A DNA stretch of 64,000 bases, from contig OY969414.1 in NCBI GenBank assembly GCA_963699155.1, positions 1,131,757-1,195,756 on the forward strand, given 5' to 3'. Shown here piece after piece: positions 62,252-62,317 of this stretch. A program made the translations under genes and the position numbers. The notes beneath the pieces are model-generated. The model made no database searches. It was not told where the DNA came from and worked only from the letters and a program-made list of their open reading frames with translations. Each line of letters begins with the position of its first letter. Within the stretch, counting starts at the first letter, position 1. Origin of the DNA: an uncultured Chlamydiales bacterium. GTDB lineage: Bacteria; Chlamydiota; Chlamydiia; Chlamydiales; JAAKFR01.

Positions 62252-62317
62252 GGTGGGGCATGGCATGGCTAGGCTTGTCAAGGCTTGGTGGTGGCGTGGT
62301 GGGGCAAGGCAAGGTTT
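62252..62317 (+). repeat. GGY-NN pentamer array (putative guide ncRNA)
   Basis: GGTGG GGCAT GGCAT GGCTA GGCTT GTCAA GGCTT GGTGG (T) GGCGT GGTGG GGCAA GGCAA GGTTT. Confidence 0.85.

Follow-up and report, generated by a model that had tools for sequence, protein, structure and literature searches.

A GGY-NN pentamer array beside a Vipr homologue in a chlamydial prophage remnant, with a predicted guide target in a phage major head protein gene

What does a short tract of G-rich pentamers, set between two small genes of an uncultured Chlamydiales bacterium, encode? The tract lies in a 64,000-nt stretch of DNA, the whole of which is referred to here as the window. It is composed of thirteen GGY-NN units, in the order GGT-GG, GGC-AT, GGC-AT, GGC-TA, GGC-TT, GTC-AA, GGC-TT and GGT-GG, followed by an extra T (62292) and then GGC-GT, GGT-GG, GGC-AA, GGC-AA and GGT-TT. 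The variable dinucleotides of positions 62252-62317 thus read GG-AT-AT-TA-TT-AA-TT-GG-GT-GG-AA-AA-TT. The array starts four bases past the stop codon of the upstream gene, which encodes a protein with a RAMP fold, runs on the strand of that gene, and ends in GGTTTTATTTT, directly before the ATG of a small HNH nuclease gene (Table 1).

The preliminary description of this DNA had seen a G-rich, 66-nt tract with a 5-nt phase in an AT-rich region, with a GTC variant (62277) and, at 62292, one T too many, which shifts the register. Both irregularities are present in the sequence, the shift being +1, and the character of the tract is confirmed by shuffled controls and by base composition. The pattern (GGYNN)x4+GGY, with at most one mismatch, occurs five times in the 64-kb window, always within the tract, as compared to a mean of 0.02 and a maximum of 1 in 100 dinucleotide-preserving shuffles of the window. 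When the entire genome (2,399,326 bases) was scanned for at least seven of eight phased GGY, the tract was the sole locus, on the plus strand, and no second GGY array was found on the minus strand. The GC content is about 0.38-0.41 in the region, as compared to 0.475 in the genome, and TRF reported an 11-bp period inside the tract itself.

The upstream gene provides the key to the tract. Its likely start is the ATG at 61640, within a frame that is open from a TTG at 61625, and its stop codon is the TAA at 62246-62248. The 202-residue product belongs to phrog_4652, a family of unknown function (E 8.7e-12), and no Pfam family was found for it. Homologues are abundant, with 826 at E <=1e-3 out of 1125 candidates, and two of them carry the source name 'CRISPR-associated RAMP superfamily protein'. 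A profile of 42 homologues matched one solved structure, chain D of PDB 36pp, 'SUSP1 Vipr protein', with an E-value of 1.5e-8 over positions 7-190 (184 positions), and the single sequence from the window reached E 1e-4 against the same chain. The AlphaFold model of the protein (pLDDT 84.9, pTM 0.79) had its top Foldseek matches in chains of backbone size (about 190-235 residues) from type III-A Csm and type VII CRISPR complexes (E ~1e-8, TM ~0.5). Given that the upstream gene encodes a Vipr homologue, the locus represents a VIPR system.

VIPR (Viral Interference Programmable Repeat) is a phage-borne, RNA-guided and CRISPR-like system described in bioRxiv preprints of April-October 2026 (PMC13142463; 10.64898/2026.04.26.720927; 10.64898/2026.10.15.759431). 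The reference locus is the type II VIPR of Escherichia phage SUSP1 (PMC13142463 / 10.64898/2026.04.26.720920), for which structures of the Vipr protein are available (10.64898/2026.04.26.720927; PDB 36pp). As set out in these preprints, a RAMP protein of about 20 kDa, Vipr, polymerises on a vrRNA of 9-16 YNNGG repeats, with one protomer per unit; the GGY is sequestered, each NN pairs with the first two bases of a target triplet, and the third base is skipped. The preprints further describe binding to dsDNA, on either strand and without a PAM, and natural targets in rival phages and satellites, in which the skipped base often falls on a codon wobble position; no self-targets were reported at an NN-match threshold of 80%. 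Seven types are distinguished, some with a single vrRNA and some with nuclease partners, among them an HNH Vap in fig. S21; the nuclease-bearing types act in defence and are enriched in defence islands (PMC13142463). On this basis, the tract is very probably a VIPR vrRNA guide array in which one target base is skipped after each NN. The GC at 62250-62251, just before the first GG, becomes a further guide position if the unit is taken as YNNGG, as in the preprints.

Table 1. Features of the vipr locus and its surroundings (window positions).
Feature	Position	Strand	Basis
121-aa predicted membrane protein	61256..61621	+	phrog_3054 E 5.1e-9
vipr, 202-aa stand-alone RAMP (Cas7-like) protein	61640..62248	+	phrog_4652, PDB 36pp, AlphaFold model
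Predicted guide (variable) part of array: GC, then units 1-10 (GG AT AT TA TT AA TT GG GT GG)	62250..62302	+	sequence + target match
Probable vrRNA array, 13 GGY-NN pentamers	62252-62317	+	read from sequence
Semi-conserved 3' end: GGC-AA, GGC-AA, GGTTTT, then ATTTT	62303..62323	+	61 related arrays
HNH nuclease gene (vap), 80 aa	62324..62566	+	PF01844 E 1.5e-6; HNH phrogs E ~1e-10
cI-like HTH repressor	62641-62979	-	PF01381
RecT	62980-63765	+	PF03837
YqaJ exonuclease, 289 aa, extends past window end	from 63767	+	PF09588

The locus shares with the SUSP1 system a stand-alone RAMP protein of about 20 kDa, homologous to SUSP1 Vipr, and an adjacent same-strand array within the range of 9-16 GGY/NN pentamers, the NN of which are hypervariable among relatives. 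A predicted one-skip target with wobble skips, a self-match below 80% and a mobile-element setting are further points of agreement. Of the residues with which SUSP1 Vipr contacts RNA and DNA, K82, R138, D177 and R179 are aligned with K71, R135, D175 and R177 in the sequence alignment of the two proteins, and R135 and R177 are invariant among the aligned homologues. On the other hand, the direct similarity to SUSP1 Vipr amounts to only about 25 bits, and two SUSP1 residues are replaced in the alignment. The position of W178 is occupied by Gly, and that of H17, the His reading G1 in SUSP1, is occupied by Asn; the 42 homologues have His here in 34 cases and Asn in 8. SUSP1 has four vrRNAs and the window locus one. 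The partner gene encodes an HNH nuclease, as compared to the DNA-binding vap1 of SUSP1. Finally, SUSP1 has a pseudoknot 3' tail, and the last element seen in the window array is a semi-conserved AA/AT-GG-T-run right against the next gene. A structured tail of the SUSP1 kind was not found in the sequence of the window array, and no Rfam match was found around the locus, where a promoter and terminator scan was likewise uninformative.

The HNH gene product also matched the IscB HNH region of NCBIfam, under the cut-off (E 1.8e-8). An HNH homologue lies directly 3' of vipr in 73 of 82 related loci, whereas a homologue of the 121-aa membrane protein occurs in only 2 of the 82, so that the conserved module consists of vipr, the HNH gene and the array. 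Judged from this gene order, the HNH gene is the conserved partner (vap) of this Vipr clade. On the other side lie the genes of a repressor, RecT and YqaJ and, past YqaJ, two unknown frames, a glycoside hydrolase gene and genes for acetate kinase, phosphoketolase and aldolase in pieces. No phage structural genes were found beyond the YqaJ exonuclease. Since structural genes are lacking and the metabolic neighbours are fragmented, the locus is located in the short remains of a prophage, surrounded by decaying sequence; as read from the gene content, the vipr locus is part of a remnant of about 3-4 kb.

To what extent the irregularities of the array are meaningful can be judged from its relatives. 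In the phylum of the window, 9 of 401 genomes, including its own, have a Vipr homologue, spread over nine genera; it is absent from both same-genus genomes searched (n=2). Seven of the eight other loci show arrays, the eighth being a truncated match, and the guides differ between these loci. A wider set of 68 homologue loci comes from Chlamydiota, Bacillota, Chloroflexota, Acidobacteriota, Armatimonadota, Cyanobacteriota and others; arrays of six or more units lie on the vipr strand in 59 of these loci and on the opposite strand in 3. The array is located before vipr, between vipr and the HNH gene, as in the window, or after the HNH gene. Sixty related arrays contain 710 GGY units out of 847, leaving 16% non-GGY, and 15 of the 60 have a register shift. 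As both deviations are common, the GTC unit and the extra T of the window are normal for the family. The related arrays keep the GGY and have hypervariable NN.

The variability of the NN is not uniform along the arrays. Among 61 distinct related arrays, the entropy is 2.7-2.8 bits for the last two NN before the terminal GG, as compared to 3.7-3.8 bits at positions -4 to -7 (maximum 4). The first base of these last two NN is A in 42 and 43 of the 61 arrays, mostly as AA or AT, and the arrays end in a semi-conserved AA/AT-GG with a T-run or GGA. The AA-AA-GGTTTT of the window fits this 3' end. Hence the initial assumption that all 13 NN act as guide has to be given up: the last two or three belong to the semi-conserved 3' end.

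The setting raises the question of whether the array is an inactive leftover in a decaying prophage remnant, its expression and loading having ceased. The phage-like genes that remain cover only about 3-4 kb, next to the broken acetate kinase, phosphoketolase and aldolase genes; the array contains a GTC unit and a +1 shift, the H17 position of Vipr is Asn, and the two same-genus genomes lack a homologue. However, the vipr and HNH frames are intact and of full length, the non-GGY units and shifts are usual among the related arrays, and Asn recurs in the homologues as described above. We therefore regard loss of function as an unlikely state of the locus, though the most serious of the alternatives, and somewhat favour the view that the locus is still active.

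If the tract is a vrRNA guide array, its NN should point to a target, and for these the preliminary description had offered two readings, either concatenated or with a target base left out between successive dinucleotides. It had found no target in the window, and this holds for the window and for the whole genome. The best one-skip match in the genome has 19 of 26 positions (73%), below the 80% threshold; among 40 shuffled guides, the null used for each parse, the mean maximum was 19.4 and 37 reached the same score. When the genome was searched under skip rules 0-3 with eight parses of the guide, those parses that have 22-28 informative positions scored 17-21 matches, no better than the shuffles. 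The one-skip value did not stand out from those of the other skip rules, and a value of 21/26 under skip 3 was set aside as the array matching itself. Two sites with three mismatches in the 401 phylum genomes, one in an unnamed 193-aa gene amid housekeeping-type genes and the other at the start of a collagen-like gene, were judged to be chance, being without phage genes nearby.

The viral and metagenomic collections, which were scanned for exact matches only, gave a different result. Units 1-8, taken as an exact one-skip pattern, occur at 74 loci of IMG/VR, and units 9-10 match too in 24 of them. The other 50 loci match the unit 9-10 positions at a mean of 0.20, from which 0.05-0.08 full matches are expected by chance. 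All 24 matches to units 1-10 in IMG/VR, and all 44 in the metagenome collection, fall in one gene, which encodes a major head protein. The two sets overlap in part, and as one gene family they represent one independent event. Three controls of identical composition, the concatenated 20-mer (0-skip), the two-skip pattern and the reversed one-skip pattern, each gave 0 loci, as compared to the 24 IMG/VR loci of the one-skip form. The comparison with control patterns thus favours the gapped guide: the reading with one skipped base coincides with the published VIPR rule and is supported by the 24 and 44 target matches, whereas the concatenated reading, with 0 loci for its contiguous 20-mer, is not sustained.

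The match has several features in addition to its exactness. The 5' GC agrees in 67 of 68 target sites, extending the match to 22 of 22 positions. Each skipped base is a codon wobble position, with two to four different bases per skip among the 68 matches. In sense, the guide equals the antisense strand of the gene, so that both the coding strand and the mRNA would be open to pairing with it. Units 9-10 match in phase, implying that the extra T leaves the target register unshifted. The last units behave differently, as units 11-13 match the head protein target at only 1-2 of 6 positions. Over all 13 units, the score is 22/26 (85%) in the best family members and 21/26 in the rest, and the full 13-unit one-skip pattern had no exact match in the metagenome collection. 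We infer that the GC and units 1-10 form the guide and that units 11-13 form its 3' end or handle, a division drawn after the match had been seen, though from independent arrays. On sequence evidence, the head protein site is probably the real target of the guide.

Next to the target gene, which encodes a protein of 296-316 residues (phrog_1357, E 2.8e-21), lie a portal gene (phrog_156) and a scaffold-like gene. The site spans the codons that specify the peptide ..PTPNFNYIIPA.. (A-P-I-I-Y-N-F-N-P-T-P read backwards). It belongs to an uncultivated phage family of about 37-40 kb, five records of which are 97-100% complete, three having terminal repeats. These phages are linked to the window by the YqaJ exonuclease beside the locus, which is 45-51% identical (E 1e-84 to 1e-97) to proteins in four of the five complete target genomes and 35% identical to that in the fifth. 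Among 50,697 isolate phages, 279 records match this YqaJ, the best at 31% among the matches listed. A peptide-word search of IMG/VR for YqaJ relatives yielded 10 loci, at most 42% identical, and was non-exhaustive, since the relatives of 45-51% identity in the target phages escaped it. The head protein itself has full-length homologues in 6 of 400 genomes of the phylum of the window, with up to 49% identity, and the homologous site in these matches 15-16 of 20 guide positions. Isolate phages contain one distant relative (20.6%), and the same head protein query found no homologue in the own genome. The shared YqaJ and the occurrence of the head protein in the phylum suggest that the predicted enemy and the phage that introduced the locus are relatives, the enemy belonging to a lineage seen in genomes of this phylum.

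One of the target phages (L260, G405:C1, about 4680-5440) has a Vipr-like gene of its own, 47.5% identical to that of the window over 61 residues. In front of the gene stands an array of pentamers with a looser fixed part (G-G/C-Y; TTGGC ATGCC TTGGT ... TTGCA ATGGT), with a hairpin and a T-run after it; a match to HNH was not found there. The predicted enemy would thus itself carry a different VIPR variant.

A second alternative accepts the array as a genuine VIPR vrRNA and takes the match to the head protein as coincidental, the real target lying outside the collections, or all 13 units being guide. In its favour, units 11-13 are unmatched and no 26/26 match exists; the chance of a 20/20 family in IMG/VR, at the 0.05-0.08 given above, is small but not negligible, and several parses were examined. 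Moreover, no related guide matches the same target phages. When ten guides from other phylum genomes were compared with 12-kb target pieces, none beat the shuffles, and of 60 related guides tested against the five whole target genomes, 2 reached <=5/100 shuffles, which is the chance level. However, the three composition-matched controls gave no locus at all, and all 68 exact matches lie in one gene with the skips at wobble positions and the GC agreeing in all but one. In addition, the target phages carry the closest YqaJ relatives seen, the head protein family occurs in the phylum of the window, and the unmatched units coincide with the semi-conserved 3' end of related arrays. We consider coincidence improbable, slightly more so than loss of function, and take the head protein site as the predicted target in the following.

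Two further alternatives would deny the guide altogether. In the first, the tract is a structural element, such as an RNA G-quadruplex, a terminator-like signal or a TRAP-like phased protein-binding site, in keeping with a GG every 5 nt and the T-rich array end. This is very improbable, as array and Vipr homologue go closely together across phyla, with the GGY kept and the NN hypervariable, the NN specifically match a phage gene, and no terminator-like hairpin was found at the array. Several ideas of this kind had been dropped when the product of the upstream gene was recognised as homologous to Vipr, namely a TRAP-like phased RNA-binding site and a G-quadruplex tract, as well as an R-loop or class-switch-like region, a cluster of Chi or primase sites and a CsrA sponge.

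In the second, the tract is translated, as a 54-aa frame (62248-62412) with a peptide of the G-x-A-x-x type is open through the array and its ATG overlaps the TAA of vipr in a manner resembling translational coupling; this is the least credible reading and can practically be set aside, since NNGGC repeats hardly admit stop codons, so that an open frame carries little weight, neither Pfam nor PHROG has a family for the frame, it runs into the HNH gene in another frame, and the related arrays often are closed (18 of 60 with stops in all three frames, 19 of 60 with an open frame and a start <=60 nt upstream), have unit counts with lengths over all residues modulo 3, and lie at three places relative to the genes. 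The check on coding, under which translation would have spoken against a guide, thus came out on the side of the guide array.

The following mechanism may be proposed for the guide array by analogy with the published systems. The vipr gene, the array together with its 5' GC and its 3' end (62250-62323) and the HNH gene would form one operon, in which the tract encodes the vrRNA. Vipr protomers would bind one per pentamer, sequester the GGY and present the NN for pairing with the first two bases of one target triplet after another, the third base being flipped out. The guide is predicted to recognise the coding strand of the major head protein gene in the uncultivated family of about 37-40 kb. 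As the skipped bases fall on wobble positions, synonymous changes would not escape recognition. From what the preprint says of nuclease-bearing VIPR types, the HNH partner suggests cutting of the target, not mere silencing. The prophage remnant that carries the locus is related to the target phages, so that the locus would shield its carrier, or what is left of the prophage, from super-infection by related phages. Taken in all its parts, as a decayed-prophage cassette that provides single-guide immunity, with 11 NN reading codon positions 1 and 2 of ..PTPNFNYIIPA.., the last two NN acting as handle and 6-base units being tolerated, this scheme has in our estimate an even chance of being correct.

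Among the published systems, the locus may also be compared with the nuclease-associated types III and V, which likewise have a nuclease partner, a single vrRNA, a guide to a viral gene and a place in a cellular genome. Unlike the enrichment of the nuclease-bearing types in defence islands, its place is a prophage remnant. The HNH partner and the single array would fit type III, judged from the text of the preprint and the legends of its figs. S20 and S21. A broader likeness is that to the Cas7-type backbone subunits of the type III-A Csm and type VII complexes: the protein has an RRM core, a thumb and, near its end, a glycine-rich loop, GLGDGRAIGFGRF, and one protomer per repeat unit with periodic base flipping is also the arrangement of Cas7 class 1 effectors. 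However, the RNA period is 5 nt instead of 6, and the pairing of the guide is gapped instead of contiguous. Nor does the locus have the repeat-spacer array and the cas set of class 1 CRISPR-Cas. The neighbours are the membrane protein, HNH, repressor, RecT and YqaJ genes, no cas families were found among the scanned neighbouring genes (Pfam, PHROG), and TRF listed no tandem array adjoining the locus besides the tract itself.

The locus therefore adds an instance and details to the published VIPR mechanism and no new principle. What is new here is the specific predicted target, the evidence for a 3' end that is not guide, the tolerance shown towards a 6-base unit and, as a possibility, a link between phage and host. 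The data suggest two rules for this clade that are not stated in the accessible passages of the preprint: the last two NN are not guide, and a 6-base unit does not shift the register. Natural VIPR targets are known for few clades, and the locus is a clean minimal example, with one protein, one guide and one small HNH nuclease, carried by a cellular genome with kinship to environmental chlamydiae. If true, the assignment would provide the first host link for the uncultivated family of about 37-40 kb, and if the target prediction holds, vrRNA guides could be used like CRISPR spacers to link phages and hosts.

Several observations on related arrays were made in passing. In the phylum genomes L128 (G044) and L132/L220 (G343), the Vipr proteins are 78% and about 50% identical to that of the window, and the arrays of G044 and G343 share a near-identical series of first ten NN, AC-TC-GG-TC-AC-TG-G?-GT-GT-GT, a guide conserved across diverged loci. 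In IMGVR_UViG_3300035122_000006 (L005:3640-3860), a long NN-GGA array (GGAAT GGAAA GGAAT ...) lies downstream of a 36%-identical Vipr homologue; it has GGA instead of the published GGY and ends in GGTTTTT, followed by an apparent tRNA 3' part, GGTTCGACTCCC. The IMG/VR contigs L018/L023 and L010/L024/L025 contain tandem vrRNA arrays with constant linkers of about 25-30 nt that start at the GGTTTTA end, a repeat-spacer-like arrangement, and in L018 the series begins right after the C-terminus of the Vipr homologue (..GIGDGRKIGFGRF..). Small membrane proteins ending in ..HGRLC.IEER.. (L125:7832-8113 and L006:2669-2854) are common to a target phage and to a VIPR-rich phage contig (L004/L006), in which each of these genes is flanked by long pentamer arrays.

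Other features were seen in and around the window. Just to its right (L007:8425-14104), acetate kinase is spread over three frames and phosphoketolase (XFP) over three, accompanied by a partial class-I aldolase and a P-type ATPase fragment, so that broken metabolic genes lie beside the prophage remnant. Within the window, a 69-bp tandem repeat at 1662-2501 (12.2 copies, 83% matches) overlaps a 554-aa frame on the minus strand (716-2380) and probably belongs to a repeat protein, and a 30/60-bp tandem repeat with 5.3 copies lies at 29269-29428. A 64-bp unit is present twice at 17895-18024, with a hairpin and a T-run inside, as a terminator-like duplicate. At 53207-54726, an IS-type transposase extends over three successive frames (HTH_Tnp_1; HTH_21 and rve; rve_3), and is probably a frameshifted or decayed insertion sequence.
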